From: a virus
Length of the DNA stretch: 64,000 nt
IMG/VR virus record: IMGVR_UViG_3300042557_000098
Strand: one strand, 5' to 3'
Part shown: one piece after another, positions 3,001 to 47,449 of the stretch
How the letters are laid out: each line of letters starts with the position of its first letter
Position numbering within the stretch: position 1 is the stretch's first letter
The notes under the pieces: model-generated
Database searches by the model: none
What the model was told of the DNA's origin: nothing
What the model saw: only the letters and a program-made list of their open reading frames with translations
Translations under genes and position numbers: made by a program

Positions 3001-3245
3001 TTATCACCATTTACTATTAATGGTTCACCATTTTCATCAACTACTTTAGAACCTTGCTTTCTTTCCCAATCACCAAACCAGTTCTTAAATGAACCAGTGT
3101 ACACCTGTGCCCATAGACGTAAGGCTTGCTCCTTGTCTTTTACAAGATCTTGCAGAGTTTTATATAGAGTAGAAGGCTGCCCATTAGGAGCTTCTACTCT
3201 TTCAATTACACCATCATCATTTCTAAATACTTGACATTCAGCCAT
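1..3245 (-). CDS. Giant virion-associated protein, partial (ATG at 3245..3243; ORF runs off the window start, more than 1081 aa). Contains a RecB-family PD-(D/E)xK nuclease motif GTIDFLAIEPDGKTHILDWKF
   Basis: Manual translation of the minus strand from ATG 3245 stays open to position 1. It is in frame with the motif at about 1565..1630, which matches the RecB/AddA/Cas4 consensus G.ID....DG...I.DYK. It sits 14 nt downstream of the 4145-aa ORF stop, with no long plus-strand ORFs across it. Confidence 0.6.
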   Translation of the reverse strand, partial: MAECQVFRNDDGVIERVEAPNGQPSTLYKTLQDLVKDKEQALRLWAQVYTGSFKNWFGDWERKQGSKVVDENGEPLIVNGDKFQSDIVTPGPNQFKSVLNEGSFAIDKGGYDNTQVRTEAIPSGEGVVARKTARRQELESLGAFNVQFVEGGIKYSFDPTNIYFQDKNMASSIASPQTVAKIKEVLAKMGVSIEDLYEYAKNTDIDVKGKTALADLTRGVIAIANQQEGQALTEEMVHIATAMIEQTNPGLITQMISKIDRFKIYKETYDAYKDTYTLPNGKPDIRKIKKEAVDKLITELIVNQMENTDQFPELREEINQSFVRNLWNAILDFINGMYRKANIDIFTEVASQIGSGDISGDIADIKQGGIFFQLSDAQKKITDSLDQTKNTITKVYEDQEKVDPILLDSEEASNFYQAQKPDGTTEKVLKRVTDRVKAWYKKKFPGKVFTKQEKEFNELKRKFGVKGHQDLEDIHHRYYNEDGTRRVKPVDAPSTFNLETKQMYQLLENYYVKLIDSFPEGTIIRAEVIIYNPKDKEAGTIDFLAIEPDGKTHILDWKFLQFAEGSEDVAFFKQGAYDIQLGTYKDILRNYYGVKSFGMTRAIPIMMKMETQNKPDGTSENVIKGIAIGSVNAKEITDLRLLPVSEKTESTGYEKLDKYLAKLNTLYERISGQKAEEEERQFKYARMRELKRAIRLAQGTGNIAELINVILTTRAKGEQIINTYDTIFKDRDASSEDSTNEELSEFAGELRNYIETAEIFDRVDAEIGDLIYSPEMEIDAKTDEDKKLLTELRELRANLEKEAKNIYKSKQELIDIAFKFADKHIGQRNLTTGLTKPEVVTKGLAANFRGVEDLGQRSLNVLAKLNRQARSNANADSLEEIKELMEIRERFVKRGGDIRQTIKKVYQKDEKGQWINRLIYKYDEKFRSEVDAKAAAGGDITWLKNNIDIEAYKKEADAVLEKNLKRINDDFPGNSPEIVEKREKAIIQESRKYDITRKDFNGWNNYIIKNHPLSKWESAEYKDIKNDPDLFALYNFISKTNKKAKDEGFIQNSISSFFLPFVRKTMAESLVWDGKLSVMEN

Positions 3246-3259
3246 TTGGATTGATTTTA

Positions 3260-6200
3260 TTATTTTTTACAGCCTTTATCTTTCTTATTTAATACGTCAT
3301 CTATTTCTGAAGCTTCAACAGGAGGAGTTTTTTGACCACCTATGAATACTGATTTAATAGTATCATCACTAACCTCATCTACCTTTATGAACCCATTATC
3401 AATCTTAGACTTGTTAGCAAAGTCATAGAACTCATTAGCTCTAAAACTATCACCCCAAGCATTGATTGCTTTGTAGACAATGAATGTATATCCTGATCTA
3501 TTATATGTAATTAAAGGATCAACACCATCATCTATTACCTTCTTAAATAACCCTTTCTTAATGAAAGAGAAATCTGATGCTTTGACCATCTCTGCTCTTG
3601 TCTTTCCTTGAGGTATTTCTTCCCAACTATATACAATAATATCCTTAGTGCTCTCTCTAGACAACGTTGATATCTTAATCAATTGAGGAATCTTCTTATC
3701 TCTCATTGCAATATTTGCACCAGTGTTTAAGATAGTCAATGCATTATTATCATATCTAGTCTTTAACTTACCATCTTTTTGCTTCTCTGTTTTCCATTGT
3801 GCTTTCTTGTGAGGAACAATTTCATCATCATTCCAGTTGTTTCTTTCAAAAACATTCAATGTAGCAAAGTCAGCTAAGTTAGGTAAAGTTTCTAACTTGG
3901 ACAAAATATCATTGTATTCTTCTACAAAGTCATCATAAGGAATAAGAGAAGTAAAAGATATAGCAGATGTAGATAAACCAGATTGTAATATAGAAAGCTT
4001 TACTAACTTCTTATACAAAGGAAGATCACCTGTAGACTCCATATAGTTTCTCAACTCTTCAAAGCCATATATAACTTTGTTTTGATCATATACTTTGTTA
4101 TCCTTACCTGGCATGTAAAGATTATTAGGACGCTCTTCTTCTGTTCCTGCAAACTTAGGAGCTAAAGAGTTTACAATAACATTGTTATGTAAAACGTGCT
4201 CAGGATCATTTTTAATATCATTAAAATAATCTGTAATCTGTTTTGCTGTACCATCTTTAGATAGTAGGTCTCTCTCCATATTGATCTTAAATGTAGGATT
4301 GATTTGCACAGCCCAGTCAAAAAGATCATTAACAGCTTTTCTAGCCACCTTAACAAACTGTCTATCGTTCAAGTTAACGTAAGGTCTTAGTACGCTTTGA
4401 AGCACACCTCTTACCCTTCTTGTATCAGAAGTCAAAGCTGTCTGACCAATAGCATTTCTACTATCACGTAATCCTATTCTAACTCTACCTATGAAAGATT
4501 TATTTAATAAGTTATCTACAGAAGATATAATAGTTTCTCTAGCTTGAGATAACTGCTCTTCTTTCTTAAAGATTAACATTGGGTCATTGAACGCTGTTGT
4601 ATCAAAGTTAGATCCTTGTACCACTTTAAACAATTGATTAGCCATCATGCCATACTTCAAGAACTCATTTAATATGAATTGTTGTTCAGCTTTTCCAGCA
4701 ACATCAAAAGACTTCTTACCTATGTTCTTCTCAAGAGCAGCAACGTTAGGAATACTATTCAATCCTTGTACTTTGCTTGGGTCCACCTTATATTTCTCAG
4801 AGTCTTTAATAGCAGCTACAGTTGAGTCATTAAATAACCAAGTGTATCCACTGTTTTCTAACTCACGTACATAATCACGAATGATTGGCTGGTTCATAAA
4901 GTAGGCCACCTCTTTAATTGGAACTCCAATCTTAACTAAGAACAACCATGTAGGAGCTACGTTAGGACTTGCACCTAACTCCATAATCCAAGGTCCCTTA
5001 GCAATATCCACATATCCATCAATAAACTGACCAATGATATCAGATATGTCATATTTATTGTTAGCATCTTTAATACCAGAAAGACTAGGCACTGTTCTAC
5101 CACCAACCCTCACTGTATTATATTTGCTAAAGTTAACATTAGCATCTCCTAACCACTTCTGATCAGACTTGCTTAATTTGTACATCATTGATTTATCAAC
5201 ATACATATTAGAACGTTGGTTCTGAGCATGGTTAGTTTGAGCTACAGCAGCAAGACCAATTGCATATTTACCACGTACAAACGCTTGTCTAAGTCTAGAC
5301 ATGAATATTTGATTCAACATATTGTCAGTGGAAGAATAATCAAATGAACCAAGACCTAACTTGTCTGTAATATCAATTGACATGTCTTTTAATAACTTAG
5401 CATTGTTTGGTGTAACCAATCTAGTGTAGTTAGCCTCACTTCCAATAATGTTTTCTAAAGACTGAATGTATTGATTCTCAATAGACTTCTTGTATAATAG
5501 ATTGATTATTTGATCTTTAGCTTTGATACCTCTAGTAAATTCTTGTGTTAATTCATCTTCATTAATAAGACCATTTAAGTTTCCAACTATTGCTGTAATT
5601 AACTTACTTGCATTAGACTTCTCTTCAATCAAGTCTTCCAACATGATTTGTTCTTCTGCTATGTATCTGTCAAGCTCTTGTAATTGTTCTTTAGTTAAGA
5701 ACTCTCCTTTGTCAAACATTTCTTCAAACTTCTTGATAGCATCCTTACCCATTCCAAAGTATGGAATCAACTTAGGCTTACCATCTTTTCCTTTGTAGAT
5801 GTTCTTGAAATACATAGATAACTTATCTATGTCAAAGTCAGATCCAACCTTCTGAACTAATGCAGCTGGTACAACAACAGAGTCTCCAAACTCTTTAGGA
5901 AGGAACTTAGCTATCTTAATTACATCCACAGAGTTTTGCTTCTGTGTAGGAATACGAAACGCAACACCTTTCAATAGTGCCTGACCTTCCTTAGTCTCAT
6001 TCAAATATTCTAACAAAGCTTCATCAGACATGTCGCTATCAAACCATCTTCCTACCATCACCTCAGCTACACGCTCTCCACCTTTCTCATAAAACTTTAA
6101 TACATCTGACTCAAACAATCCATTCTTTCCTACAGGTCTTACTGATTCAAATCCTGTAGAAGGAATCTGTACTTTTAATCCACCATTAATCTTTGGACGT

Positions 6201-9200
6201 ACAATGTTCTTATCCACTATAGAATAAAGAATGTTTCTCACTTGACTGTACATAGGGCTAGCTTCAATCAAAACTTGACCTTTCTCAAAGCCCACAAGTG
6301 CAGCAACTATATTACGATTCACTTCTCTTTTGAATAACTCAGAACGTAATGTTTGAGCAATCTTCTCAGGATCTACAATCTCAAATCCTGCTTTGGTTTG
6401 TTTAATACCTAATCTATCAAGAAGGTTTTTATAACCAATGTCAGTCATTTCCTCTAGTAAGTCTTGGTTCTCCAATATCTCTTTGAAGAATGGAGATGCA
6501 TTAGCCATAGCTGTTTCATCTTCTAAATTTTCCCAAGCTTCTAAACGCTTGTTAAAATCCTTCTCATCAGACATGAAGTCAAAAGGCACACCAGCTTGTA
6601 AGAAGTCTAATGTTACCAACTTAGTAATCTGAGAACCTCTTGTTACAAAAGCCTCATCTTTAGAAGGCACCTCAGACTGTACACTTATAATACTAAATGG
6701 TATATTAATCTTATCTGTATCTGCAATAGGAGCATCATTAAAGTTACCCTTGCTATCATATAATTTAACCAATACATCAGCTCCCACCTTTCTACCACTG
6801 TCAAATACAGCGTAGTCAATGTTATTCTCTTGCATCTTGTTGTATAACTTGATAGCATTTGAATCCTTATTGATTTCATGTAACACTCTGTAACTCAATG
6901 GATAAAGAGCAAACTTATCTAATACAACATCATTGTAAGATTGTTTACTCATCTTAGCCCCAGCTACAATAGGTTTCAATGGAGTGTATGCACTTTTAAC
7001 TTGAGGATTGCCTGCTTCTAATAAATTTGATTCATTAGGAGAAAGATCTTGACCCTTGTCTCTTTTCTCAAAAGCAACATCATATCTGTATTGTCTTTCC
7101 TCATTAGGGTTCCAGTTTGAAGCACGTATTCTAAAGTTGCGATATGCTTGCATACTAATCATACCACCACCATCTGTTTCAGTGAATGATGAATACTCTT
7201 TAGCAAATCCTTCTACATCTGCTACACCTTTGACATCCTCTAATGTGATGGTTTTGAAATAGTCAGCTGTGAAGTCAGTGTATCCAAGATCATCAATATC
7301 TGTATAGTCATCATTATATACATTATTCATTACAGCATTTAAACCTGCTGAACCATATATGATAGCCTGACGTGGAGATAAGAAACTCTTAATACGCTTC
7401 AATTCATCTTTGTAGAAATATGGATCTGAGTATACAAGCTTATGTAACTCTATGTTATTAATCATATAGTTAACAGATAAGTACTTGATATTCACATCAA
7501 CATCATTCTCACTTAAAGATCTTTTCTTTTCAAATTCCACTCCATTAAAGTTAAAACCATTCTCATCTTCAGAAAGAATATTGTAATTAGAATACACAGC
7601 TTTTCTTCTCTCAATATCCTTCTTAACAAATGCGTCTATAGCAGTGTTTATTCTTGATTCAAAGTGTGTGTAAACATCCTCAAGAGATTTCTCTTTGCTT
7701 GGATCATATGATACAATATCTTCATGTAATGATGGTCCTAATATATTCTTGAAGAAACGTAGGTCTGTAGACTTTCTAGTCTCGTTTTCATCTTGTACAA
7801 TCTTACGACCTTCTCTAGAAACAGCTAACTCTGACAAGAAGTATCCTTTAAATACTTTATGTATTGAGCTATTGTCTTTCTTTAAACTATTTAATGTAAC
7901 TGTATTACCTACATAGTTTGCCCAGTCCAAAGAGGCATCTCCTGGAACAAGGTTCATATAGTATCCTGCTAGGTTAAGATTTAACTCTTCCTTCAAACGC
8001 TCACTAGGTGTAAGACTAGCTGGGTCTTTTCTTTTGCCAAGGCCCTCATCAATCATACCACCTGCATACGCTGTGCTTAATATCTCATCACCCTTAGGTA
8101 ATTTGTTTCCTGAATCTTTATCAAATATCTTGTCCATGAATACAGAACCAGTGTTAGCAAAGTTATCTGTAAGTAAGTATTCATATCTAGAGCCAACTAA
8201 TTGTTTCTTATTGCTTATCTTAGTTAAGAAATCACGTAAGCTACTAATAGCATTACCACCTATGAAAGACTGTACTCTATCACCTTCAAGGTTAAAATAG
8301 GTACTTTCAAAGTCAGGATTTTGAATCTTAGCAAGCATGTCAGCAATCTCCTTAACTCTACCTGCAGTGTTAATTGTCTTACTAGAAATAAACTTAATCT
8401 GCTCAGCTTCTAATAAGTTCTTCTTTATACCAGCAACAGCTTTGTTAAAGTCAGATTCAAAGCCAAGTCTTCTAATCATTCTAATAGGAACATCCACTCC
8501 TAAAGACTTCATAAATAATACACTTCTTTCTAATGATCCTAACTGTTGATTCTCAATGTTCTTCTTAATAGCTACGTACATTTTGTTAGGAGCATCATAT
8601 CTATAGTACTTTCCTAAGTTCTTTTGTATAGAGCTAATGATACTGTTTTCCATATCAATAGCAATTTGCTTAGATGCTGTGCCTACAGACATATCAGTTG
8701 TCACTACAGTTCCATCAGGAGCTGTGTACACTGTAACCACGTCAGGAGCTTGTCCCTTCATTACATTGTAGAAAGAAGTAACCAGTTGAAGATCTGCATC
8801 AGTTTTTATATTAGCATAAGGATTCAACTTCTCAGAAGAAGGTTGTCCTGTAAGTCTTTGGTATATTACACCATATTCAGGTTTTTGAGACTCTACAAAC
8901 TCACGTAGTTTTTCCATCATATCATCTACTGTATCTGAGTTGTATAAAGCATTCTTAAGGTCTATATACACCTTGCTCATTGGTATTAATCTAACACCAT
9001 TGATTGAAGAAAGTGTTCTTTTACCTCTTGCATTTCTGTATGGAATGGTAGCTAACAATAATTTAATAGCAGCGTTAGCCTTCTTAAACTTGTCTATTTT
9101 CTCTGACTCTTGATAGTCTCCTCTACCTGTATTATTCTCATTTGTTGTTTGAGTACTATCGTTCTCATCAAATTCAATAGAATAAGATAACAATTGTTCT

Positions 9201-12200
9201 TCAAAGATTTGAGTTATCTCATCCCAGTTTTTATCTATGATTGCAAACAACTGCTCAGCTTTTGCTACCTCAGGAGCTACATCTTCTTTTGTAGCAATAC
9301 CTTCTTTCATTAGTTTAGCAGCAATGTTCTTAATCTTATCTACAACTGTATACTTAAGATTATCTTTAGCTTCTTTATATATTACAGCTCTGTTCTTAGC
9401 AGGGATATCAAATAGGCTTTGATTAGTAGCAATAAGATTTGTAAGAGTAGAATAGGTCATTTGTTGAATAGTATCATGTACTTGTTCTCCTGTAAGACCA
9501 TTAGCAATTAAACTATACTCACTAGTTGGGTCACCTATAGCATCTTCAACATCAATAATACCAGGCTTAGCTAATGCTAACTTAGATTGATATGGAGATG
9601 CGTTCTTATAATAACCTTCTCCTATTCTCTTAAATAACTCTTCTGTGTTTCTTGCAGCTTGAGGACCTAAGAAATATTCTTTAATAAAGTTTGCTAAATC
9701 AGTAAATAACTTAATGATGTAAGGTCTACCATCAGCAGGCTTAGGTGGAACTTTCTTATCTAATACATATTCTCTAAACTCTTCTGCTAGTTGTTCCTTG
9801 ATTTGACCAGGAGTTGCTTCTGAGTATTTAACTTCTTGTCCTGTAACTCTATCTACAAAGCTGCCCTTTCTATTCTTGAATTCATTTACAATAGCCTTGC
9901 GTTCCTTAGGGTCAGAGAACATATTCCAGATAGCATGAAACACTTCATGATATGCTGTCCCAGCCTCTGCATTAGTGTATACATAGATAGCACCATTCTT
10001 ATACATACCCCAAGCCTTTCTTCCTCCTGTAGCTTTGATGACATTCTTCACTCTATATACAGGAACATTAGGTAGGTTAGTTCTTAACCATTGTTCTAAC
10101 TTCTTCCAGTTTTCAGATTTGAATGTCTTTATTTCATTCTCTAATATCTCACGTAAGTCTCCATCTTCATCTTCTAATAATGCTTCTTTTATAGCACCAC
10201 TTCTTACACTAGGGCCCTTTGTTGTAATTTGTGCTGGTGCCTTTTCTTCAATCTCTATTACTACATCATCTGCATCTGCTTCATCAGGTATTGCAAAAGC
10301 TTCTTCATCTTCTTCTACAGCAGTTGCCTTCTGTACAGGTACATTTAAGAAGTTAGCAATAGGAGCTTTTAAAGCTCTTCCCATATCTTCCTTCTTAATA
10401 TTTGCAGCAATTAAAGCTTCCTCAGCTTTAGCTAAGTCTTCTCCTTTTAATATCTTAATACCATTATCAATATCTCCTTTAGCCAATAAATTACGATTAG
10501 CTGTGAAAGCTATTCTAGTTCCCTTTGGAGTAATAAATATATTCTTAGTCTTACCATCTAATACAAACTTTGAACCAGTCTTAGTTTCTATTGGAGCTTC
10601 TTGTGTTTCTCCTACAGTAAATGTTTCTTCTTCTTCTGCAGAAACAGGTGTTGCAGCTGTAGGCTTAATGCCACCAGGAACAACAGTCTTAGGCACAGTT
10701 CTAACTATCTCTGTAATAGTAAAGTTGTCAGCAGCATCGCTAAGTGTAAAGTATACACCCTCTCTATTAGTATCTTCAGGAGATTCTAACGCAGTAATAT
10801 CAGTAAACAAAGGAATCTCATCAGCTGTTCTTCCCTCATCTGATAACAAATATGTTTGATAGTTTTGCCATTCTTTTGTTTGTGGAATACCATTCTCACC
10901 AATACCTATGATTTCTTCATATGTTAAATTATATTCATCTGTGTTTTGTACCTTTCTAGCATTAACATTATTGTACATGTTTTGTAGAAGAGTGACAATT
11001 GCATCTTTCTGAGTTTCCATTGCTTGTGGTGTAAAAGAAAGACTCTCTCCTTTACCAGAGAAGAACAATCTTAATTCACCATCTGCTCTCTCAAACCATA
11101 TACTATTATAACCAGGGTCTTTGCCTTCTTTAGGTTTGCCCCAGAATGTAACACTTCTTAACCAGTCAATTAAATATTCACTTCTAGCTTCTACACCACC
11201 ATCATCAAACACATTGTTAGATAATTGATTAAGAACCTCATAGATAGTTTCAGCTTCTTTAGTATTGAACAGTCTGTTCTTTAACTTAACATAAGCATTA
11301 TCTAATACTAAGAATATTCTACCAAGCACATCTGTAAACTCTGTGCTTCCTTTACTAATATCTTTTGCAACAGTAGGCACTTCAATTAACTGCTTTTCAA
11401 CTAAGTCTTTGTCTTCAATTAATCCAGCAGCCTTTACAGACACAGCAGCACTTGGATCAGTAACCTTCTTACCATCAGGTAATGTAATACTAACTCTAGT
11501 AGGTCTTCCAAAAGAAGGAGTGATTGATTGTAATCTAACAGCAGGGTCTTTTAATGTTTCATTTCTGAAAGCAATATATTGATCTTTTAACTCCTTTCTA
11601 GTTTGCTCAGGTGTGTTGCTTCTGAACATTGTTTCATTACCAAAGTCAGGACCCCATTGTAAACTCTCGTCAGGCATTACTTGGAACACAGCATTCTCTA
11701 ACTTATCTTGACCTTCTGCAAGAGGTTGCCCATCTTGACCTACCAATACAAAGTTACCATTACCTTGATCTTCAACCATTACTAATGCAATAGTCTTTGT
11801 TGGATCTATGTCTGTATTGTTGTTCTGTAAATATGAAGTAAGTCCTGGTATAATGTTGTCTTCATTTGCAGAAGTAACTAAGACACCAAATATATTATTC
11901 TTATTAGGGAATGAGTTGAACTTATTACCAAAGTAATTTGCACGTGCATAGCCTAATATATTCTTACTAGCAACAGTAGATGTAACTAATATCTTTGGAC
12001 CTTTCTTAGAAGTAGGTTCGTACTTAACACTATATGGAGTATTGTCTAATTGTTCCTTACTTAATGTACCAATAACTGCATTAATAAGTTTACCATCACT
12101 CTTTAACTTTTTCTCTTGTTCTTTCTGTAACTTATAAGCTTTAGCAACATCTTGAAATCTAGTTAAAATTGCTTCTCTAGCTTTTAAGTCTTGTTCATAT

Positions 12201-15200
12201 TCCTTTAACTGATCTTGTAAACCTTGTAACTCTTCTCTTAATTCAGCAACACTGCGTTCATTAGGAGTTACATCTAACTCATCAATATTGGCAAGATCTC
12301 TTTCAAACTCAATTAAGTCTGACATTAATTCAGGGTTAGTTCTTCTAACTTCTGGATTAGCATTCAAATATTCTTGTAAAGCTAATGGAGTGTAAGGTAA
12401 GTTTGGATATTTAGCTTCAAACTTCTTAATCAGATCTAATGCCAAATCTACAGCAGTATCTAAAGCTTTCTCAACATTAGTTAAGAGCTTAGACAAAGCA
12501 TTAATATTTTTACCAGTATCTAATATTAAATCTTCAACAAGAGACTTTTGTTCTTTTAATTCATTGATAAAGTCTTCACTTTCTGCAGGAAGCTCACCTA
12601 TATTCTGAACCATGTCAGCAATGTAAGCTTGTGTAAACTCAAGTTCTTCTTGTTGAGATTCTAATTCTCTAATCTCATCAATTAACTTATCTCTTAGTTT
12701 AGATAATTTACTTGCAGCTCTAAGTGCGTTGGCTGTGGTTTTTTTGAACGCATTCTTCTTAGTCATCTCACCAGCCTTAAGCTTGGTTTCAACATTAGTA
12801 AGATCGCCTGTTATCTTCTCAAGTTCATTGTATTTTTGTTCTAATAACTTTTGTGTAGACATTAGCTTTGATGATGTTTCATCAAACATGTCATTTAGTA
12901 TTTTTAATCTAGCTTCTCTTTTAGCAGAAAATTTTGATTCTTTTAAACTAACAAATTCATCTAATGCTTGTTTTTGAATTGGTGTAAGTTCACCAACAGC
13001 CATAATCATAGGAACATCATATCCTTCTTGAGCTACAAATTGACTACCTGTAACCTCAATAGATTTAATCTTTCCTTTAGTGTCTCTGTACACAAAGTTT
13101 AATACTCCATCTTTAGGGGAGTATTCTAATCTACCTTTAACTTTCTTACCTTTACCAAAGTTAAATTGAAACACAGTGTTACTATGTTCCATATAGTATT
13201 TGGCTTTTTTATTATTTAAAGTGTCTGACACTTTGCCTAATTTATAGCCAGCTAATTCTTCTTTAGAGATGTCTCTTACAACACCATTAGAATCCTTAAT
13301 CTTAATAGTACCATCTTCATTTTCTCCAAGGATAGTTAATCTTGGAAATCCATAAACCTCATTACCATCTTTGTCATACTTAACAGTTCTACCTAAGTAG
13401 TATTCTGTATCTACTTCAATATCTTCTTCACCATCCTTAGTCTTAACTTTTACAGTTTCTTTCTTTGGAGCATCTTTATCCATAGTTTCTGCAGTGTCAT
13501 ACTTACTAGGATTGTTCTTTATATCATTATATTCAAACAAGAAGTTGTCTCTACGCAAAGCAAGCTCTGCAACATCTTCTAATGTCTGCATTAATTCATC
13601 TTCATTAATAGACTTTGATGCCTTAATTTTTTCAACAGCTGCTATGTAAGAATCACTGTCTCCATTAGTTAAGTCATTAACAACAGTAGTAGTATCAATA
13701 CCTACAGCATCTAACACTGTCATTAATTGAGGAAGTCTTTCATCATAGTCTGCCACCTTAGTTGCAGCATATATCATCTGATCCATCACCTTTGGTGAAT
13801 AGACAGGCTTACCATCAGCATTTACTAACCCACCATAGCGTACATCTAATGATTGATATAATGATTTAATGTTCTGAGCAGTAACTTCTAAGTTAGCTAA
13901 TCTTTGTAGATATGCTTCTTTAGTATCTGTATCTAATGCCTTACCTTCTGATTGTAACTGTGCAAATCCCTCATCAGTCATTGCTAGAGTTTTATACTGA
14001 GCAATGTCGCTTTGAACAAGATCAAATCTACCATACTTAATACGAGGAGTTAGATAGTTGATTATGTAATCACGCTCTAAGTCTTTGCTCTCTAGAATAT
14101 CACCTCTTCTTATTGTTGTTTCTCTTTCCTCTTGTATAATTGTACCTCTATTAACAGATCCTTTAACTTCTTTAGAGAAGTCAGACAAGATAGCATTATT
14201 AAATTCTGTAATAGCAGCTTGTGTATTCTTTGACTTTTCTTTTGCTTCACCAAACTTACCAGCACCTAACATTAATGCTCCAGACAATCCACCAATAAGT
14301 ATGTTCTCCATACCCTCATTAGTAGTTAATGTTTCACTAATTCCTGCAGCAACACCATCTAACCAATTAGTTGGTTCGTTGTTATATTTCTTATTGTAAT
14401 AGTTTTCTGTAGATTTGCCAATTGCGTATTGTGCACCTTCCTCAAATGCTTCTGAAGCAGAGAAGGTATATGGTCTCACCTTATTTAATGTAGATAAGAT
14501 TTTTCCAAATCTATTAGGAGCTGCTATATATTTACCAGTAGCGTCTGTTGTAATTTCACCAATTTCTTTTGTAAGAGAATTAACAATCCCTTTCTCCCCT
14601 TTGTATGTAGCTCCTAGTATTTTAGGAAACTGAATATAGTTAGTAGCAGTTAATAAACCAACGTTTGCAAAGTAAGAAGAATTACCCACTTCTTCAGAAA
14701 GTTGATTAATCTTTAACAGATCTTCTCCCATAGGAGCTTGACCACCATTTGCTTCTTTATATTCTTCAATCTTTTTATTTCTAAAATCATTAAGCGTATG
14801 GTATGCTTCAAAGCCAGCCTCACCCACTGTACCTAAAGCTGCAACAGTAATTCTACCTCCTTGACCTAATGAGCTATAAGATGATAAAAACTTATCAGAA
14901 AGTCCTTTAAGTTTACCATAAGTAGAAGCTGCTTTATCTGCAGCAAGCAATGCTTCTTCTGAAGCAGCTAAAGCTTGAGCACCCTTACCCACTGAGAACA
15001 GTCTAGCTGTAAGAGGGATTGATTTTAGAGCAGCAGCATATGCTCCTCCTGACAATGCAGCACCTGCAGCAAAGCCTAAGTTTTTAACAACTCCATCCCA
15101 AATAAAGTTAGCACTAAATAACTTACTTGGAGAATACCAATCTTGTTCTCTTTCTCCTGCTTTATAATAGTTAGGCATTATGTTTTCAGAAGCCTTTACA

Positions 15201-15697
15201 ACTTCCTCATCTAAAAACCTATTCATGTCATTATCATAAATATCTGCAAATCTTCCAGAGTTTGCAAAGTTAGCTAGACCATTTACTAGTCCTACAGTAG
15301 ATTGTAAGAAAGTAGTTCCTGTAAGAACTAAACCTTTACCTACACCATTAACCATTTTACTAGCCCAACTTTGACTTTGAGCATAAGCATCTTCATTATT
15401 ATAATCACCAGGCATGAAGCTCTTATATCTATCACTACTTACCTCTGTTAAAGTTCTATCAATGCCACCTGCCATCTTCTTACCATCATTTCTACCTGCA
15501 GTTAATACAGCATTCTCAAGAGCACTTAATGCAGTAGGAGTAGGTTCTCCATCCATCATAGGAATACCAGTTCCTTCGTATTGACTTCGCAAGCTTTGAT
15601 AAGGAACACTTGCAGGTCTTTCAGGAAGTTCAGTAGGTGTATAATCATTCAATGATGAATCTAATAATGCCCTGTCTATTAAAGGAGTATCTGCCAT
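3260..15697 (-). CDS. Giant 4145-aa virion protein. Zincin-like HEVFH motif at residues 1917-1921; DFDID at residues 3287-3291; long coiled-coil stretches. Candidate virion RNA polymerase or ejected cargo protein
   Basis: Single uninterrupted 12.4-kb ORF with an ATG start. HExxH lies in a hydrophobic context (AYHEVFHAIW). The DFDID motif recalls the catalytic triad of double-psi beta-barrel RNA polymerases. The position at the distal end of the structural operon matches where crAss-like phages place their giant proteins. Confidence 0.85.
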   Translation of the reverse strand: MADTPLIDRALLDSSLNDYTPTELPERPASVPYQSLRSQYEGTGIPMMDGEPTPTALSALENAVLTAGRNDGKKMAGGIDRTLTEVSSDRYKSFMPGDYNNEDAYAQSQSWASKMVNGVGKGLVLTGTTFLQSTVGLVNGLANFANSGRFADIYDNDMNRFLDEEVVKASENIMPNYYKAGEREQDWYSPSKLFSANFIWDGVVKNLGFAAGAALSGGAYAAALKSIPLTARLFSVGKGAQALAASEEALLAADKAASTYGKLKGLSDKFLSSYSSLGQGGRITVAALGTVGEAGFEAYHTLNDFRNKKIEEYKEANGGQAPMGEDLLKINQLSEEVGNSSYFANVGLLTATNYIQFPKILGATYKGEKGIVNSLTKEIGEITTDATGKYIAAPNRFGKILSTLNKVRPYTFSASEAFEEGAQYAIGKSTENYYNKKYNNEPTNWLDGVAAGISETLTTNEGMENILIGGLSGALMLGAGKFGEAKEKSKNTQAAITEFNNAILSDFSKEVKGSVNRGTIIQEERETTIRRGDILESKDLERDYIINYLTPRIKYGRFDLVQSDIAQYKTLAMTDEGFAQLQSEGKALDTDTKEAYLQRLANLEVTAQNIKSLYQSLDVRYGGLVNADGKPVYSPKVMDQMIYAATKVADYDERLPQLMTVLDAVGIDTTTVVNDLTNGDSDSYIAAVEKIKASKSINEDELMQTLEDVAELALRRDNFLFEYNDIKNNPSKYDTAETMDKDAPKKETVKVKTKDGEEDIEVDTEYYLGRTVKYDKDGNEVYGFPRLTILGENEDGTIKIKDSNGVVRDISKEELAGYKLGKVSDTLNNKKAKYYMEHSNTVFQFNFGKGKKVKGRLEYSPKDGVLNFVYRDTKGKIKSIEVTGSQFVAQEGYDVPMIMAVGELTPIQKQALDEFVSLKESKFSAKREARLKILNDMFDETSSKLMSTQKLLEQKYNELEKITGDLTNVETKLKAGEMTKKNAFKKTTANALRAASKLSKLRDKLIDEIRELESQQEELEFTQAYIADMVQNIGELPAESEDFINELKEQKSLVEDLILDTGKNINALSKLLTNVEKALDTAVDLALDLIKKFEAKYPNLPYTPLALQEYLNANPEVRRTNPELMSDLIEFERDLANIDELDVTPNERSVAELREELQGLQDQLKEYEQDLKAREAILTRFQDVAKAYKLQKEQEKKLKSDGKLINAVIGTLSKEQLDNTPYSVKYEPTSKKGPKILVTSTVASKNILGYARANYFGNKFNSFPNKNNIFGVLVTSANEDNIIPGLTSYLQNNNTDIDPTKTIALVMVEDQGNGNFVLVGQDGQPLAEGQDKLENAVFQVMPDESLQWGPDFGNETMFRSNTPEQTRKELKDQYIAFRNETLKDPAVRLQSITPSFGRPTRVSITLPDGKKVTDPSAAVSVKAAGLIEDKDLVEKQLIEVPTVAKDISKGSTEFTDVLGRIFLVLDNAYVKLKNRLFNTKEAETIYEVLNQLSNNVFDDGGVEARSEYLIDWLRSVTFWGKPKEGKDPGYNSIWFERADGELRLFFSGKGESLSFTPQAMETQKDAIVTLLQNMYNNVNARKVQNTDEYNLTYEEIIGIGENGIPQTKEWQNYQTYLLSDEGRTADEIPLFTDITALESPEDTNREGVYFTLSDAADNFTITEIVRTVPKTVVPGGIKPTAATPVSAEEEETFTVGETQEAPIETKTGSKFVLDGKTKNIFITPKGTRIAFTANRNLLAKGDIDNGIKILKGEDLAKAEEALIAANIKKEDMGRALKAPIANFLNVPVQKATAVEEDEEAFAIPDEADADDVVIEIEEKAPAQITTKGPSVRSGAIKEALLEDEDGDLREILENEIKTFKSENWKKLEQWLRTNLPNVPVYRVKNVIKATGGRKAWGMYKNGAIYVYTNAEAGTAYHEVFHAIWNMFSDPKERKAIVNEFKNRKGSFVDRVTGQEVKYSEATPGQIKEQLAEEFREYVLDKKVPPKPADGRPYIIKLFTDLANFIKEYFLGPQAARNTEELFKRIGEGYYKNASPYQSKLALAKPGIIDVEDAIGDPTSEYSLIANGLTGEQVHDTIQQMTYSTLTNLIATNQSLFDIPAKNRAVIYKEAKDNLKYTVVDKIKNIAAKLMKEGIATKEDVAPEVAKAEQLFAIIDKNWDEITQIFEEQLLSYSIEFDENDSTQTTNENNTGRGDYQESEKIDKFKKANAAIKLLLATIPYRNARGKRTLSSINGVRLIPMSKVYIDLKNALYNSDTVDDMMEKLREFVESQKPEYGVIYQRLTGQPSSEKLNPYANIKTDADLQLVTSFYNVMKGQAPDVVTVYTAPDGTVVTTDMSVGTASKQIAIDMENSIISSIQKNLGKYYRYDAPNKMYVAIKKNIENQQLGSLERSVLFMKSLGVDVPIRMIRRLGFESDFNKAVAGIKKNLLEAEQIKFISSKTINTAGRVKEIADMLAKIQNPDFESTYFNLEGDRVQSFIGGNAISSLRDFLTKISNKKQLVGSRYEYLLTDNFANTGSVFMDKIFDKDSGNKLPKGDEILSTAYAGGMIDEGLGKRKDPASLTPSERLKEELNLNLAGYYMNLVPGDASLDWANYVGNTVTLNSLKKDNSSIHKVFKGYFLSELAVSREGRKIVQDENETRKSTDLRFFKNILGPSLHEDIVSYDPSKEKSLEDVYTHFESRINTAIDAFVKKDIERRKAVYSNYNILSEDENGFNFNGVEFEKKRSLSENDVDVNIKYLSVNYMINNIELHKLVYSDPYFYKDELKRIKSFLSPRQAIIYGSAGLNAVMNNVYNDDYTDIDDLGYTDFTADYFKTITLEDVKGVADVEGFAKEYSSFTETDGGGMISMQAYRNFRIRASNWNPNEERQYRYDVAFEKRDKGQDLSPNESNLLEAGNPQVKSAYTPLKPIVAGAKMSKQSYNDVVLDKFALYPLSYRVLHEINKDSNAIKLYNKMQENNIDYAVFDSGRKVGADVLVKLYDSKGNFNDAPIADTDKINIPFSIISVQSEVPSKDEAFVTRGSQITKLVTLDFLQAGVPFDFMSDEKDFNKRLEAWENLEDETAMANASPFFKEILENQDLLEEMTDIGYKNLLDRLGIKQTKAGFEIVDPEKIAQTLRSELFKREVNRNIVAALVGFEKGQVLIEASPMYSQVRNILYSIVDKNIVRPKINGGLKVQIPSTGFESVRPVGKNGLFESDVLKFYEKGGERVAEVMVGRWFDSDMSDEALLEYLNETKEGQALLKGVAFRIPTQKQNSVDVIKIAKFLPKEFGDSVVVPAALVQKVGSDFDIDKLSMYFKNIYKGKDGKPKLIPYFGMGKDAIKKFEEMFDKGEFLTKEQLQELDRYIAEEQIMLEDLIEEKSNASKLITAIVGNLNGLINEDELTQEFTRGIKAKDQIINLLYKKSIENQYIQSLENIIGSEANYTRLVTPNNAKLLKDMSIDITDKLGLGSFDYSSTDNMLNQIFMSRLRQAFVRGKYAIGLAAVAQTNHAQNQRSNMYVDKSMMYKLSKSDQKWLGDANVNFSKYNTVRVGGRTVPSLSGIKDANNKYDISDIIGQFIDGYVDIAKGPWIMELGASPNVAPTWLFLVKIGVPIKEVAYFMNQPIIRDYVRELENSGYTWLFNDSTVAAIKDSEKYKVDPSKVQGLNSIPNVAALEKNIGKKSFDVAGKAEQQFILNEFLKYGMMANQLFKVVQGSNFDTTAFNDPMLIFKKEEQLSQARETIISSVDNLLNKSFIGRVRIGLRDSRNAIGQTALTSDTRRVRGVLQSVLRPYVNLNDRQFVKVARKAVNDLFDWAVQINPTFKINMERDLLSKDGTAKQITDYFNDIKNDPEHVLHNNVIVNSLAPKFAGTEEERPNNLYMPGKDNKVYDQNKVIYGFEELRNYMESTGDLPLYKKLVKLSILQSGLSTSAISFTSLIPYDDFVEEYNDILSKLETLPNLADFATLNVFERNNWNDDEIVPHKKAQWKTEKQKDGKLKTRYDNNALTILNTGANIAMRDKKIPQLIKISTLSRESTKDIIVYSWEEIPQGKTRAEMVKASDFSFIKKGLFKKVIDDGVDPLITYNRSGYTFIVYKAINAWGDSFRANEFYDFANKSKIDNGFIKVDEVSDDTIKSVFIGGQKTPPVEASEIDDVLNKKDKGCKK

Positions 15698-18297
15698 TAT
15701 AAAGGTTTTTGAGAAGCTTTTTGTATTTTTTGTAAGTCACCAGCTGTTGCTGGTCTTTCATTTATCAATCTAAATATCTCACTATCATTCATATTTTTTA
15801 TAGCCATATTAAGCCCTTCCTTAGTCATACTTCCTACACTTGGATAATACATCTCATCAACAGTCCATCCTCTTTTCTTAGGGTCAGGATTATAGGCTTT
15901 GATTGCTAATGTATAATTACCTGGACTAAGTTGTATGATATTTGCTTTCACACCATAGGTTTTTACATTTTCAAAATCAAGATTACCTAAGAAAGCATTG
16001 CTAACAGTTGTCCTGGCACTACCATCTTTGGCAGTGGTCATTCCTCCTGTTTTATTTATTTGATCTAAATATGGTCTTAGTTGTTGTGATGCTACATCAT
16101 CAAATTGAGTACCAAAGCCTCCTATTTTTTGTTCTGGAGTTAATCTAAAACTAGTTGCTTTTCCTCCTGGACCAACAGCTGTAACTTTATAATAAGGTTC
16201 TTGGAATTCAGTGCCTTCAGCAACATCTATTGAAAAGTTTGGATTTTCTGATCCTGCAATTTCTCTAGCAGTCTCAACATTAAAATCAGGAGAGCCTGCA
16301 AGTTTACCACCACTCTTCTCAGCAGCAGCAGCAGCAGCAATTAAAAAGCTTTTTAAACTTCCTTTTTGAGCAGGAGTTATTGAAGGGATGTTATATCCAG
16401 CAGCTTGACTTACAGAAATCCTATTTTTAAAAGTATCTTCCATAGTCTTATCAATCTTTTGTAAGGTTTCTTTATAAGGCTTATTTACAGTCTTTGCATA
16501 ATTGTCTAGTTGAGCTAATATAACCTTGTCAGAATCATATCTCTTGGCTGGCATCTTACTCCAAATCTTATACAAGTTATACATCTTAGGACTTAACTCT
16601 TGTCTAGCTTTAGCATCTGCTGAAGCTACAGGAGTTCCTGCCATACCAACAACAGATCCTCCACCTGGAGCTGTACCACCACCAGTACCTCTATATTTAT
16701 ATGCTACTGTATTAAAGTCTACAAAGTCTTTAGCTGTATATTGATATACTTCATTACCTTTTTTATAAGTAACAGTAGGAGCATTTTTAGGAATAAGCTT
16801 ATCTATTGTACCATGTTCAGCTTCTGCCTTTCTTCTAACATCTAATATTAATTCTTGATTAGCTTCAGCTTGTCTTCTTTCTTTTTCTGTAGTATTAAAA
16901 TAGTTAGCTACAACAGGACTAACCCCTGTAGGTCTTGTTTCCCACGCAGCTCTTTGTTGTTCAAACCATTCTTTAGTTTTACCTTGAGACTTTAAAAAAG
17001 CTTCATCTCTATCTTTAATTTTACCTAACTCTATATCTGTTGTTCTTGTAAGTTCACCAACAGTTAATTTAGGAAGAGTATCCTGATCTACAGGAGCTGC
17101 AAAAGCACCATATCCTTCTGCTGTTTTCTTTGCTATTTTATTAGCCTCTTCTGCAGCTTTGACTTCTCTACTTTTCCAATACATATTATCTTTATGTATC
17201 ATCCAAGCTTGATTTTTTGTTTCCCTTTGCATTTGCATTTGAGCTGCAGGACTATCTTCTTTTGTGATCTCAACTTCTGTATGAGAGAAAGGTTTAGCAA
17301 AGTTGTTAATAGAGTTAAGAGTAAATAAGTTTGCCTTAGCTCTTTCCAAATCTCCTCTATCAACAAGACCTAATATACTATCTCTTTCTTTATTAAGTTT
17401 GTTAATTGTAGAATCAAGACCATTTATCTTATCTTGAATCATTTGTTTCTGAACATTTGAATTTGTAGAACTTAAAGAATTTTGAAGAAGTTCTTTTTGT
17501 TTAGTGAAGTATTCAGACTTATCTAAGTATTCACTATTAACATTCTCTTTAAATAAATTAGGATCAGTAACATTACTATATGTATATACACCATCTATCT
17601 CTAACTGTCTCCAGTCAGCAGGTGTTAAACCTACAGATAGTGCTTGTTTGATTTGGTCAGGAGACACACCTGCAAGTTTTGTTCTTGTAACAGCATCTGC
17701 TAAGACCACTTGAGGTTTCCCATCTTTACCAACAACTGTTGTAAAATCTTCTTCTGTAATAGTTGAATCTCCAGTGAGATCCTTTATAATATCTAATGCA
17801 TTTTTTCTCCAGTTTGTGTATGGATCATACCCTCCACTAAATGTTTCTTTTACATCTCCATTCATCCACTTGTTAGTTTTTTGTTGAAACAACCAGTCAT
17901 TTGATGGAGAAGTCTTGCCATCTTTTAGATATTCTTCTCTTTCCTTAACAGCTTTTTTATATTGTTGCGTAGATGATACAGCGTTTATGATGTTTTCATC
18001 TTTAATAATTTGACCTGTCATACCAGCAACTGAGTTAACTAGTTGTTGATTAGAGAAGTCTCCTGCTGCCACAGTCTTTAATCTACTACCTAACTCATTG
18101 AGTTTAGATTGTAATACCTGTTTGTCTTGGGGTCTGTATAATTCTATACCACCAACTCGATCAATTTCATTCTGAATTTTTTGCACACCTTGATCATACT
18201 GGGCTTGCTTTTGCATGCCCACTTGCACCATGGCCTCCACAGGGAGCTCTTGGATGTAAGGGTTGAATTGTAAGGATTTATCAGTAAACGATGCCAT
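15697..18297 (-). CDS. 866-aa virion protein of unknown function; first of three large distal genes, TAATG-coupled to the 4145-aa gene
   Basis: Long ORF with an ATG start; its stop overlaps the next start by 1 nt; sits in the structural operon. Confidence 0.8.
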   Translation of the reverse strand: MASFTDKSLQFNPYIQELPVEAMVQVGMQKQAQYDQGVQKIQNEIDRVGGIELYRPQDKQVLQSKLNELGSRLKTVAAGDFSNQQLVNSVAGMTGQIIKDENIINAVSSTQQYKKAVKEREEYLKDGKTSPSNDWLFQQKTNKWMNGDVKETFSGGYDPYTNWRKNALDIIKDLTGDSTITEEDFTTVVGKDGKPQVVLADAVTRTKLAGVSPDQIKQALSVGLTPADWRQLEIDGVYTYSNVTDPNLFKENVNSEYLDKSEYFTKQKELLQNSLSSTNSNVQKQMIQDKINGLDSTINKLNKERDSILGLVDRGDLERAKANLFTLNSINNFAKPFSHTEVEITKEDSPAAQMQMQRETKNQAWMIHKDNMYWKSREVKAAEEANKIAKKTAEGYGAFAAPVDQDTLPKLTVGELTRTTDIELGKIKDRDEAFLKSQGKTKEWFEQQRAAWETRPTGVSPVVANYFNTTEKERRQAEANQELILDVRRKAEAEHGTIDKLIPKNAPTVTYKKGNEVYQYTAKDFVDFNTVAYKYRGTGGGTAPGGGSVVGMAGTPVASADAKARQELSPKMYNLYKIWSKMPAKRYDSDKVILAQLDNYAKTVNKPYKETLQKIDKTMEDTFKNRISVSQAAGYNIPSITPAQKGSLKSFLIAAAAAAEKSGGKLAGSPDFNVETAREIAGSENPNFSIDVAEGTEFQEPYYKVTAVGPGGKATSFRLTPEQKIGGFGTQFDDVASQQLRPYLDQINKTGGMTTAKDGSARTTVSNAFLGNLDFENVKTYGVKANIIQLSPGNYTLAIKAYNPDPKKRGWTVDEMYYPSVGSMTKEGLNMAIKNMNDSEIFRLINERPATAGDLQKIQKASQKPL

Positions 18298-18373
18298 AAT
18301 ACAAAATTAATTTAAAATATTAGAATTACCAAGAGCTATAACAAATTTTAGTAATTCACTATAACTTAATTAG

Positions 18374-21265: not shown

Positions 21266-21285
21266 ATTATACTCTATTGTATGAT

Positions 21286-24200: not shown

Positions 24201-24312
24201 GACCTACAGACGCTTGGACATCATTAGGATTAGCTTTCTTGCCATAGTTATCCTTAGTCTTTTTCTTTAAGACTAAGCCTCCTTGTTCATATTTGTCTAA
24301 CCAGTTAGCCAT
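21286..24312 (-). CDS. 1008-aa virion-associated protein with an NlpC/P60- or CHAP-like cysteine peptidase domain (Cys174/Cys178 ... His263). Shares a GFTYARVA octapeptide with the capsid protein and has an internal G[GD]WLxxY..EP.R.D repeat
   Basis: Cys...His papain-fold signature (LTCIGGVCNVY ... PDHTNIVLG) between roughly residues 140 and 300; long ORF with an ATG start; TAATG-coupled to the downstream gene. Confidence 0.75.
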   Translation of the reverse strand: MANWLDKYEQGGLVLKKKTKDNYGKKANPNDVQASVGPDFVGLGYNIKGRDYSPAWGGRFAMGGSMPGAVGFTYARVAGSAPANGKYTKKTKASAQNGQEMKFYQEGLDFKPKSISQDGKTIPNEKEEIKPITTSQRNIGQAAAWKVIEAIKANTPYQLSESAVKSGIDQSLTCIGGVCNVYKDLGVDFSGVGNEKQGVRESRTKGKVVEYNPTFDKNYKAAGFEKVKGRPIEFNELTDIIQKGNLNPGDFIQYYNEKGIPDHTNIVLGSNPDGSVEVYNSYKHGQATRGESKEPYVYTLNPEAQDYKGKKINVFRVGDQKATEIRDASANDPSGITNTWFNYNMEKAIQRRMKILEKDYQELAKQSGEPAKKLTPSQLRKAAIEEERRIYESDPMFKRNLERINTVDFSESPQEAMYRTLNKKKNGGWLDNYSEPIRDDRGQWAYPGEVTEIGSNEITMQGVDYPVLGVSDTGDTQMMYPDQDYKFDGEKVTEYPMAQNGDWLKKYATEPMRQDATRNVIPRKMTDRERLEAVATSDQAQKKALNTAKEVIAERKKNIATKGDLNTPGSWYTEDKARLFPSSVGGAGEIFDEYINPATYVGVLADALGESVAARDPKAIATSLALAAGTGALGIDPLGSALKVPGKVTQSMESGLLSNAWRLNPKAYQYNIPKDAMFRGIGKEGMEDAVQSGLFRAKQNVTPTSIGNFNTTRQFSKAYYTPRFDIADQYGQGFIAEVPRAASDWGKRYGKKEWSQIAQRDVPITEGKILKKDWLKGYKEVPKPTASEQVVRGPIPAPYKGTTLPYDNVGYKEPATGELAPYMTPEFEAIPYSELPKTVYHGGPSVISDAGAIRTTREGLPIQSATSPTSRGFYATPNTWMHMEGSPNPLRDVEGFYPKLASENAENYAMGRGDAYIHRGEFVENPRIVDWKTFSQMEPVKNLNPDFRRLSPEAAKIAEDLGIYGLRDNSEYNILNPQKVFKSFKPAYKNLGKGWEKYNKGGWLNKYK

Positions 24313-38629: not shown

Positions 38630-38649
38630 TTTATAGTTAGTTTAAAAGA

Positions 38650-46918: not shown

Positions 46919-47449
46919 CTAATCTAATTTGTTAAGAAAGTTGTCATTTATAAACCTATAACTTCTGATTGGAGCAAGATCTGTAAGTGTAACTTGTTGA
47001 ACCTCAACTCCCCACTTCCTAGCTTCCACTCTAACTTTCTTTGTCAAAGTGTTGTCAAGTTCCTGATCTGTACATTCCTCCATGGTCATTGACATAATAA
47101 CGTTTTTTATTATACTTTGAGACATGTCTGACAATGCGTCTTGTGCATCAAACACCTCAAGTAGGAATATCTTTACATCAGCTATCTTGTATTTTACAAC
47201 TCCCTTGACAACAATGTTTTGTTTGTCCAAGGTGTATAAAGATTGAGCATCAAGACTAAGTGTAGTAGTTACTACGTGGTGATCTATCACCTCATCAAAC
47301 AAAGGAATCTTAAAATGTAGTCCAGGTTCAAGAACACTGTAGAATTTTCCACACCTTAGTAATACAGCTCCTTCATAGTCTCTGACAATAATAACTGGGG
47401 TTAGTTGTAACCACCAGTTAGTTATTATCTCAATCAGTTTATCAAACAT
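46919..47449 (-). CDS. 176-aa SPFH/band-7 (stomatin/prohibitin/HflKC-like) domain protein
   Basis: YEGAVLLRCGKFYSVLEPGLHFKIPLFDEVIDHHVVTTTLSLDAQSLYTLDKQNIVVKGVVKYKIADVKIF matches the SPFH core (E.AVV.RFGK...L.PGLHF.IP.ID.V..VD.R....D...TKD...V.VD.VV.YRI.D). Confidence 0.75.
   Translation of the reverse strand: MFDKLIEIITNWWLQLTPVIIVRDYEGAVLLRCGKFYSVLEPGLHFKIPLFDEVIDHHVVTTTLSLDAQSLYTLDKQNIVVKGVVKYKIADVKIFLLEVFDAQDALSDMSQSIIKNVIMSMTMEECTDQELDNTLTKKVRVEARKWGVEVQQVTLTDLAPIRSYRFINDNFLNKLD

Follow-up and report, generated by a model that had tools for sequence, protein, structure and literature searches.

A giant open reading frame in a crassvirus genome

We analysed a 64,000-nucleotide stretch of viral DNA (IMG/VR record IMGVR_UViG_3300042557_000098; hereafter the window), in which a single giant open reading frame (ORF) occupies positions 3260..15697. 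All genes from 52 kb to the left end of the window, and with them every feature of the window for which coordinates are given below, lie on the minus strand. The giant ORF begins with ATG and encodes a protein of 4,145 residues (464.6 kDa, pI 5.2) that contains 14 His (0.34%) and one Cys. A first-pass annotation, made from the DNA letters, had described one uninterrupted 12.4-kb frame here, as was borne out with 4,145 codons, and had proposed a crAss-like virion RNA polymerase fused to a metallopeptidase. From its N- to its C-terminus the protein contains a conserved cargo module, a coiled-coil-like segment, a zincin-like metal domain and a module equivalent to the RNA polymerase gp66 of Cellulophaga phage phi14:2. 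Taken together, our results make it very probable that the product of the ORF is a 'transcription-block' polyprotein of crassvirus type, which unites in one chain an N-module, a zincin domain and a gp66-type polymerase that are separate virion proteins in other crassviruses.

The C-terminal half corresponds to the virion RNA polymerase gp66

A tblastn search of residues 2001-4145 against 2.3 Gb of phage DNA matched the phi14:2 gene g066, annotated as 'Catalytic RNA polymerase subunit' (E 7e-26), as well as genes annotated 'RNA polymerase' in many gut crassviruses. Pairwise BLASTP aligned residues 2607-3608 of the giant protein to residues 740-1656 of gp66 (E 3e-31, ~23% identity over ~1,000 residues), with weak, colinear pieces of gp66 at both ends beyond this core. 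The gp66-equivalent module thereby extends over residues ~2100-4145 (3263..9400). In the pairwise alignment KVGSDFDIDKLSMY of the giant protein was paired with KTGSDFDIDKMYVM of gp66; the stretch GSDFDIDK is identical in both, and DFDID at residues 3287-3291 (5825..5839) falls column for column on gp66 1361-DFDID-1365. The alignment to gp66 identifies DFDID as the catalytic, Mg-binding Asp triad.

The protein to which this module is homologous is well characterised. gp66 of phi14:2 is a virion-packaged, DNA-dependent RNA polymerase that transcribes the early genes, substitution of Ala for any Asp of its 1361-DFDID-1365 motif abolishes RNA synthesis, and the fourth position of the motif is Ile or Val in crassvirus enzymes (Drobysheva et al., bioRxiv 10.1101/2020.03.07.982082). 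Among the representative homologues of the giant protein we counted 120 with DFDID and 10 with DFDVD. The proposal of a crAss-like virion RNA polymerase is thus strongly supported by homology to gp66 with the motif in register.

Further landmarks of gp66 were located through the pairwise alignment and in an alignment of 125 sequences, the DFDxD columns of the latter having been fixed by the sequence selection itself. A region upstream of the Connector (residues ~2898-3023; 6629..7006), which would form the first barrel, contains the family-invariant residues K2908, K2928, K2970, Q3007 and Q3023, equivalent to K1012, K1027, K1065, Q1100 and Q1116 of gp66. The Connector-domain equivalent follows at residues ~3006-3175 (6173..6682; gp66 1095-1238), and an invariant R3248-x-P3250-x-Q3252 (5942..5956; gp66 R1322, P1324 and Q1326) stands 39 residues before DFDID. 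G3172 and K3283 are also invariant, each matching the same residue in gp66. Equivalents of the bridge helix (residues 3462-3492; 5222..5314; gp66 1529-1559) and of the trigger loop (residues 3550-3588; 4934..5050; gp66 1598-1636) lie beyond the triad. The RxPxQ motif ~40 residues upstream of DFDID recalls the 'RAPTLH ... NADFDGD' of cellular beta', and we take this as a lead only.

No other RNA polymerase was seen in the window. An ORF of 1,849 residues was considered as the true polymerase and rejected, being the muzzle protein and lacking a DxDxD motif. Pfam and PDB sequence searches with the giant protein gave no match to a T7-like single-subunit polymerase core, the homology being instead to the two-barrel enzyme gp66.

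A zincin-like metal domain precedes the polymerase module

The motif HEVFH was found at residues 1917-1921 (9935..9949), 1,370 residues upstream of the Asp triad; the positions of both motifs and the spacing of about 1,370 residues agree with the first-pass annotation. HEVFH lies in a zincin-like, anthrax-lethal-factor-like metal domain at residues 1855-2041 (9575..10135). A somewhat wider segment, residues 1833-2095, matched gut-crassvirus genes annotated as 'RNA-polymerase subunit', and a profile search of 1.84 billion representatives with the domain returned 1,480 clusters at E <= 1e-3. A second motif, EQLAEEF (residues 1968-1974; 9776..9796), follows 51 residues past the HE and could supply the third metal ligand of a gluzincin from E1968 or E1972. 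Alignments assembled without reference to the motif show little or no variation at H1917, E1918 and E1968-x-x-A-E1972.

We then modelled the metal domain with AlphaFold. With 11 sequences the model was too poor for use (predicted local distance difference test, pLDDT, 58), and with 48 sequences it reached a pLDDT of 72 and a predicted template-modelling score of 0.62. The order of elements in this model is a helix, a sheet of three to four strands, the HExxH helix, a helix, a hairpin and the EQLAEEF helix; HEVFH is on model helix 60-72 and EQLAEEF on the next long helix, 109-126. Comparison of the model with known structures gave figures of 6.6 for the Certhrax N-domain, 6.1 for MtfA and for PPEP-3, 6.0 for the Edema factor N-domain, for Lethal factor and for PPEP-2, 5.5 for ArdC and 4.6 for the catalytic domain of Lethal factor. 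The model therefore carries a lethal-factor-like zincin signal that is consistent, if modest in strength. Foldseek found nothing for the model in the PDB; in BFVD it returned crAss-like proteins (E 5e-9 to 1e-3) and, lower down, polyvalent-protein, IrrE-like and 'lethal factor' phage proteins. No Pfam zincin or peptidase model matched the giant protein or any of 48 domain homologues, and no such NCBIfam model matched the giant protein. The fused metallopeptidase proposed by the first-pass annotation is supported, as a putative one, by the predicted fold and by the motif; it lacks a Pfam zincin model and, in most relatives, the second His.

This second His is residue 1921 (codon at 9935-9937), a position at which 85 of 116 aligned representatives carry Glu and the other 31 His; a looser regular-expression tally of 118 gave 86 Glu, 31 His and one Lys. 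The canonical HExxH of the giant protein is accordingly the minority form of a family HExx[E/H]. On a neighbour-joining tree there were at least 12 changes between the two states, a rough count since the tree was built from 187 residues. No Gln or Asp intermediates were seen in the aligned representatives, even though His to Glu takes two nucleotide changes, and for this reason the pattern at position 1921 looks like that of a maintained metal site and not like decay. We did not find a ligand interchangeable between His and Glu described for lethal-factor-like families; a single full-text literature search for HEXXE metallopeptidases brought up nothing but a fungal M35 paper, which is unrelated.

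The variation at position 1921 can also be read in another way, namely that the polymerase is correctly recognised while the zincin-like domain is a non-catalytic scaffold and the giant protein works uncleaved. The domain would then be a docking fold like the N-terminal domains of Lethal factor, Edema factor and Certhrax, attaching for instance to the portal, the tail channel or the polymerase cleft. The loss of the canonical HExxH in most representatives and the lack of a matching Pfam peptidase model favour such a role, as does the C-terminal domain (CTD) of the N4 virion RNA polymerase (vRNAP), which has an HExxH subdomain and binds and dampens the polymerase (PMC13434306). Against it, the residues H1917, E1918, E1968 and E1972 vary hardly or not at all in alignments chosen without the motif, and position 1921 is limited to the metal-binding His and Glu, with the single Lys of the looser tally, despite the repeated two-nucleotide switches. 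We consider the scaffold, and with it the docking role, possible but doubtful.

An active domain could, alternatively, be directed at the host, cutting peptidoglycan cross-links, envelope proteins or defence proteins during ejection. Digestion of peptidoglycan has been offered as an alternative role (Drobysheva et al., bioRxiv 10.1101/2020.03.07.982082), and a zincin-like stretch (hidden Markov model (HMM) E 5e-6) occurs in a 2748-residue distal protein of phage Lbo-JY46 that has no similarity to the polymerase, so that the domain can also occur apart from the polymerase. However, the distance from the metal motif to DFDxD is nearly fixed (median 1,387 residues, range 1,319-1,471, in the 108 representatives in which both motifs were located), the domain stays with the polymerase where the gene is split upstream, and searches of Pfam and PHROGs revealed neither a lysozyme nor a transglycosylase as a partner domain. 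A host target is thus unlikely, and we retain a domain that acts on the polyprotein or its polymerase as the preferred reading.

The N-terminal cargo module and its link to the metal domain

The N-terminal part of the protein contains a conserved, Gly/Ala-rich cargo or ejection module (residues 84-756; 13430..15448), which was delimited by BLASTP homologies. The N-terminus of phi14:2 gp67 matched residues 84-495 (E 1e-10), and a 1,552-residue protein of Lbo-JY46 matched the module with E 2e-22. The most extensive match was to the 'RNA-polymerase subunit' WEU69768.1 of Kehishuvirus 'tikkala' (2,310 residues), the counterpart of PhicrAss001 gp47, which aligned to residues 109-756 (E 5e-36) and again to residues 1833-2032 (E 3e-15). 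The HMM of the metal domain matched the C-terminus of the same protein at residues 2104-2255 (HEAFH ... EEAMAEGF; E 1e-20). A second Kehishuvirus protein, of 2,412 residues and with a DFDVD motif, matched residues 2928-3612 of the giant protein (E 2e-14). By mass spectrometry, gp47, gp49 and gp50 of PhicrAss001 are virion cargo (PMC10172136). The giant ORF thus reads as the fusion of a gp47/gp67-type cargo protein, terminal zincin-like domain included, with a polymerase of the gp66/gp50 type. A Kyte-Doolittle scan of the N-module at a threshold of >=1.2 found no transmembrane helices, and its sole uncharged Gly/Ala stretch is 18 residues long (207-224).

Between this module and the metal domain lies a charged, helical, coiled-coil-like segment at residues ~900-1200 (12098..13000). 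By composition (47-53% Glu, Lys, Gln, Leu and Arg, with low Pro and Gly) it is the only coiled-coil-like region of the protein; the four best segments of a crude heptad scan were 590-621 and three within 993-1189, and Pfam Laminin_II gave a weak match at residues 936-1038. All of these signals are N-terminal of both motifs, and the ~400 residues of coiled coil that had been placed between HEVFH and DFDID were not recovered; that interval aligns with globular gp66. The coiled-coil-like segment behaves as a variable insertion and is mostly absent from the separate N-module described below.

An acidic, low-complexity linker (residues ~1785-1850; 10148..10345) immediately precedes the metal domain and holds a second DxDxD motif, DEDGD. 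Its place in an acidic linker was correctly noted in the first pass, and its position, given there as near residue 1860, is in fact 1843-1847. DEDGD was rejected as a second catalytic candidate, being conserved only in one fragment of 85% identity.

The fused layout is common and is split naturally at module borders

In a library clustered at 50% identity the giant protein is its own representative (P0054), and 122 of 148 representative homologues have the fused layout with at least 3,500 residues (median 4,346, maximum 5,544). Counted as public clusters at 50% identity, at least 122 with 3,500-5,500 residues share this layout, which makes it very common among environmental metagenomes. Searches of a 5.8-billion-protein index with sub-regions of the protein gave only fragments of ~1,080 residues or less.

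In two relatives the modules are encoded separately. On a Logan contig (SRR31878170_1021; L004:988-15733) the N-module is a gene of 1,584 residues and the zincin domain together with the polymerase is a gene of 2,417 residues; three unrelated ORFs of 93, 152 and 497 residues stand between them, and the split point corresponds to a place between residues ~1660 and ~1843 of the giant protein. A gene for a 160-residue Rce1-like (PF02517) membrane protease directly follows the polymerase gene of this contig. In Kehishuvirus the gene break falls after the zincin domain. These natural splits fall at the borders of the modules. In a third case, a 113-kb contig of the Joint Genome Institute (JGI) sample 3300046167 (L002:9800-10100), the orthologue is called as 3,196 and 944 residues, and the break consists of two adjacent frameshifts in conserved sequence, ~60 residues before DFDID. 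These frameshifts are probably error or decay; programmed shifting could be another explanation.

The number of relatives bears on the suggestion that a purely structural giant protein, such as a tail, internal-body or tape-measure-like protein, has come to contain DFDID and HEVFH by chance, with the transcription enzyme encoded elsewhere. A bare DxDxD is indeed weak evidence, as had been cautioned at the outset: 1.4 occurrences are expected from the composition of the protein and two are found (DEDGD and DFDID), and the protein is named by no family library. We nevertheless hold this suggestion to be very improbable, given the exact alignment with the mutationally validated motif of gp66 inside a homology of 1,000 residues, the retention of DFD[IV]D in 118 of 122 giant homologues, the invariance of catalytic-core residues, and a window in which no other RNA polymerase was detected and the 1849-residue ORF is the muzzle protein. 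An HExxH motif is expected only 0.004 times in a protein of this composition, a low figure because the protein has just 14 His. Once homology is considered, HEVFH and DFDID both lie far beyond chance; for HEVFH, its HE and a downstream E-x-L-A-E-E-F vary hardly or not at all among homologues chosen without regard to the motif.

At least three contigs from two JGI samples, 3300042485 (with a contig of 78 kb) and 3300044641 (with one of 62 kb), encode a protein identical to that of the giant ORF, and the DNA is identical as well; this shows that the ORF is not an assembly artefact. The split region in relatives (3196+944 residues in L002, 1584+...+2417 residues in L004) might suggest that the 12.4-kb ORF arose as a chimera during assembly or joins separate genes by read-through. 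This is hardly credible when identical DNA occurs on independent contigs of two JGI samples, more than 120 divergent clusters share the uninterrupted layout, and the L002 split, two adjacent frameshifts within conserved sequence, is more likely error or local decay.

Genomic context and the Cys-poor cargo block

The giant ORF adjoins a crassvirus structural module on the same strand and in the same order. The genes for the terminase large subunit (TerL; 50037-52079), the portal (47449-50037) and the major head protein (43927-45480) each match crAss-type PHROGs, and tail fibres are encoded at 36740-39819. The 1,849-residue ORF at 25645..31194 encodes the muzzle protein of crassviruses: it matches PF25731 with an E of 2.7e-32, which passes the curated threshold, and PHROG 37948. 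This protein fixes the genome type as crassvirus. Three large ORFs of 1008, 963 and 866 residues (15697..24312), candidates for cargo or ejection proteins, separate the muzzle gene from the giant ORF. The last of these (15697-18297) has 866 residues when called mechanically and 844 in the public call on an identical contig, where a later ATG is used; its stop overlaps the start codon of the giant ORF at 15697.

Downstream of the giant ORF, an ORF at 1..3245 starts at 3245 and leaves the window; on the identical contig L005 it encodes 1,744 residues. Its place is that of g065 in phi14:2, and its similarity to gp65 is faint (E 0.025). Residues 25-78 of its product (...LWAQVYTGSFKNWFGDWE...) resemble residues 17-70 of gp66 (31% identity, E 7e-4 to 2e-3), a likeness that may reflect an N-terminal signal shared by cargo proteins. 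Two genes downstream of the giant ORF, L005 encodes a protein of 1,147 residues (L005:27853-31296) with eight collagen triple-helix repeat stretches (Pfam E 2e-66).

The proteins of the cargo block are nearly devoid of Cys. The ORFs of 1008, 963, 866, 4145 and at least 1081 residues within window positions 1-24312 contain 2, 0, 0, 1 and 1 Cys, respectively, a total of 4 in ~8,060 residues (0.05%). Elsewhere in the window the Cys content is 1.73% in the muzzle protein, which is unusually rich in this residue (32 Cys), 1-2.3% in the fibres and ~0.9% in TerL and DNA polymerase. The near absence of Cys fits an unfolded passage through the tail and periplasm, and is circumstantial evidence for it.

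By TerL, the closest cultured genomes are Lbo-JY46 (40%), Cellulophaga phages phi17:2 and phi4:1 (32%) and the gut crassviruses (~27%). A megablast search with 20 kb of the window found no nucleotide match among 50,697 phage records, and there is therefore no close cultured relative. Since its TerL relatives are distant and no nucleotide match was found, the source is an uncultured, environmental crass-like phage. In Lbo-JY46, a Leptolyngbya cyanophage (L007:20355-33261; PP438436.1 62354-75260), the counterpart of the N-module is the 1,552-residue protein mentioned above, and the distal 2,748-residue protein has two HExxH motifs, one of which matches the zincin-like profile, and neither DFDxD nor similarity to the polymerase. 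By these comparisons the structural and cargo block of Lbo-JY46 is crass-like but has no crass polymerase.

A model for the giant protein

The reading of the giant ORF as a transcription-block polyprotein has to be weighed against several observations that count against it. The giant protein found no meaningful match in Pfam, PHROGs, NCBIfam or the PDB sequences, and the 1,200 residues around DFDID found none in the PDB sequences; this silence of the family libraries is uninformative, because gp66, which has been characterised experimentally, is likewise without a Pfam family. We infer the two double-psi beta-barrels of the polymerase module from homology only, and packaging, ejection, polymerase activity and any proteolysis of the giant protein are inferred likewise. 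Glu stands in place of the second His of the metal motif in ~73% of relatives. In addition, the Zincin-like domain has been placed in gp65 by the literature, and our HMM detected no zincin-like domain in phi14:2 gp67. gp65 has HEIMH at residue 245, followed ~50 residues on by 'HEFISEV', yet comparison of the metal domain with this region was negative by BLAST and HMM, and hhalign gave a probability of 1%. The zincin-like regions of gp65 and of the giant protein may be copies that have diverged very far, or may have been acquired independently.

In the polyprotein that we favour, an N-terminal cargo or ejection module (residues ~84-756), equivalent to the N-termini of gp67 and of PhicrAss001-type gp47, would be followed by the variable coiled-coil-like spacer, by a lethal-factor-like zincin of ~190 residues (H1917/E1918, His or Glu at 1921, and the Glu helix 1968-1972), equivalent to the gp47-type C-terminus, and by a two-barrel, DNA-dependent RNA polymerase of the gp66 type (residues ~2100-4145) with D3287, D3289 and D3291 as its predicted catalytic residues. 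The protein would be made late and packed in the capsid as cargo. At infection it would leave through the tail in a partly unfolded state, either before the DNA or together with it, and would refold in the cell, after which the polymerase module would transcribe the early genes. The zincin-like domain would most likely cut the polyprotein or relieve a self-inhibition of the polymerase, either in the head or after delivery.

Much of this scheme has precedents. A DFDxD virion RNA polymerase, a neighbouring Zincin-like protease domain and their fusion into a huge polyprotein in some crAss-like phages have been published, cleavage by the Zincin-like domain has been proposed for the fused polyproteins, and the domain has been suggested to activate the polymerase or to digest peptidoglycan (Drobysheva et al., citing Yutin et al. 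on the fusions, bioRxiv 10.1101/2020.03.07.982082). The giant ORF is an unannotated example of this family and architecture, in which a hallmark enzyme of crAss-like phages was correctly recovered from raw sequence alone. What the example adds is a residue-level map of a naturally fused gp67/gp47-type N-module, zincin-like domain and gp66-type polymerase; two minor points are also new, a metal ligand that may be either His or Glu and a cargo block almost free of Cys. We offer as a tentative and rather unlikely conjecture that the zincin-like module is a working metalloenzyme with a freely His/Glu-interchangeable second ligand, which cuts or unlocks a self-inhibited polymerase from the ejection module only after delivery. 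If true, this would make the protein a 465-kDa single-chain 'ejectosome-polymerase' with a built-in switch, and a natural one-gene system for the activation of crassvirus virion polymerases.

Comparison with known systems

As modelled, the metal domain shares with Lethal factor, PPEP-2 and PPEP-3 (M34), MtfA and ArdC the order of a beta-sheet, an HExxH helix and a Glu helix ~50 residues on, and by its BFVD matches it resembles the metallopeptidase domains of phage polyvalent proteins. Unlike the lethal-factor-like zincins, it is without Pfam membership and uses His or Glu interchangeably as the second ligand.

A zincin in the same chain as a virion polymerase is known from coliphage N4. Its gp50 (~3,500 residues) is a giant polymerase that is encapsidated and ejected, with an ejection part at its N-terminus, a catalytic core and a zincin-like HExxH subdomain in one chain (PMC5512222, PMC13434306). 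N4-type virion polymerases are always fused to lethal-factor-like zincin domains, for which autoprocessing in the head or after injection has been proposed (Iyer et al. 2017, PMC5512222). A 2026 structure paper describes the HExxH subdomain in the vRNAP CTD and leaves open how three crassvirus proteins relate to the N-terminal domain, core and CTD of N4 (PMC13434306). The catalytic folds are nevertheless unrelated, that of N4 being T7-like and single-subunit and that of the giant protein two-barrel; in N4 the zincin follows the polymerase along the chain, here it precedes the polymerase, and Pfam and PDB sequence searches detected no similarity between N4 gp50 and the giant protein.

gp66 is structurally closest to QDE-1 (bioRxiv 10.1101/2020.03.07.982082), and the Asp triad of DFDxD is common to the giant protein, Neurospora QDE-1 and the double-psi beta-barrel of cellular beta' (NADFDGD). 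The fourth position of the motif is Ile in the giant protein as opposed to Gly in cellular beta', a difference seen in all crAss-like enzymes.

Within the crassviruses, the giant protein is like gp66 (PDB 6VR4) in having segments that align with the Connector, bridge helix and trigger loop and in its place at the distal end of the structural operon. gp66 is free-standing with 2,180 residues, whereas its counterpart in the giant protein, of ~2,050 residues, makes up the C-terminal half of a chain of 4,145; outside gp66 740-1656 the similarity is weak, and the Cleft-blocking segment (gp66 196-233) could not be aligned reliably. In Kehishuvirus the gp47-like and DFDVD proteins are encoded by separate genes on opposite strands, in contrast to the one ORF described here; the gp47-like protein matches within the first ~2,040 residues of the giant protein, except for a middle part of ~1,000 residues that is not alignable. 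In phi14:2 the genes stand in the succession g067-g066-g065, which is mirrored here by the N-module, the polymerase and the downstream ORF of 1,744 residues.

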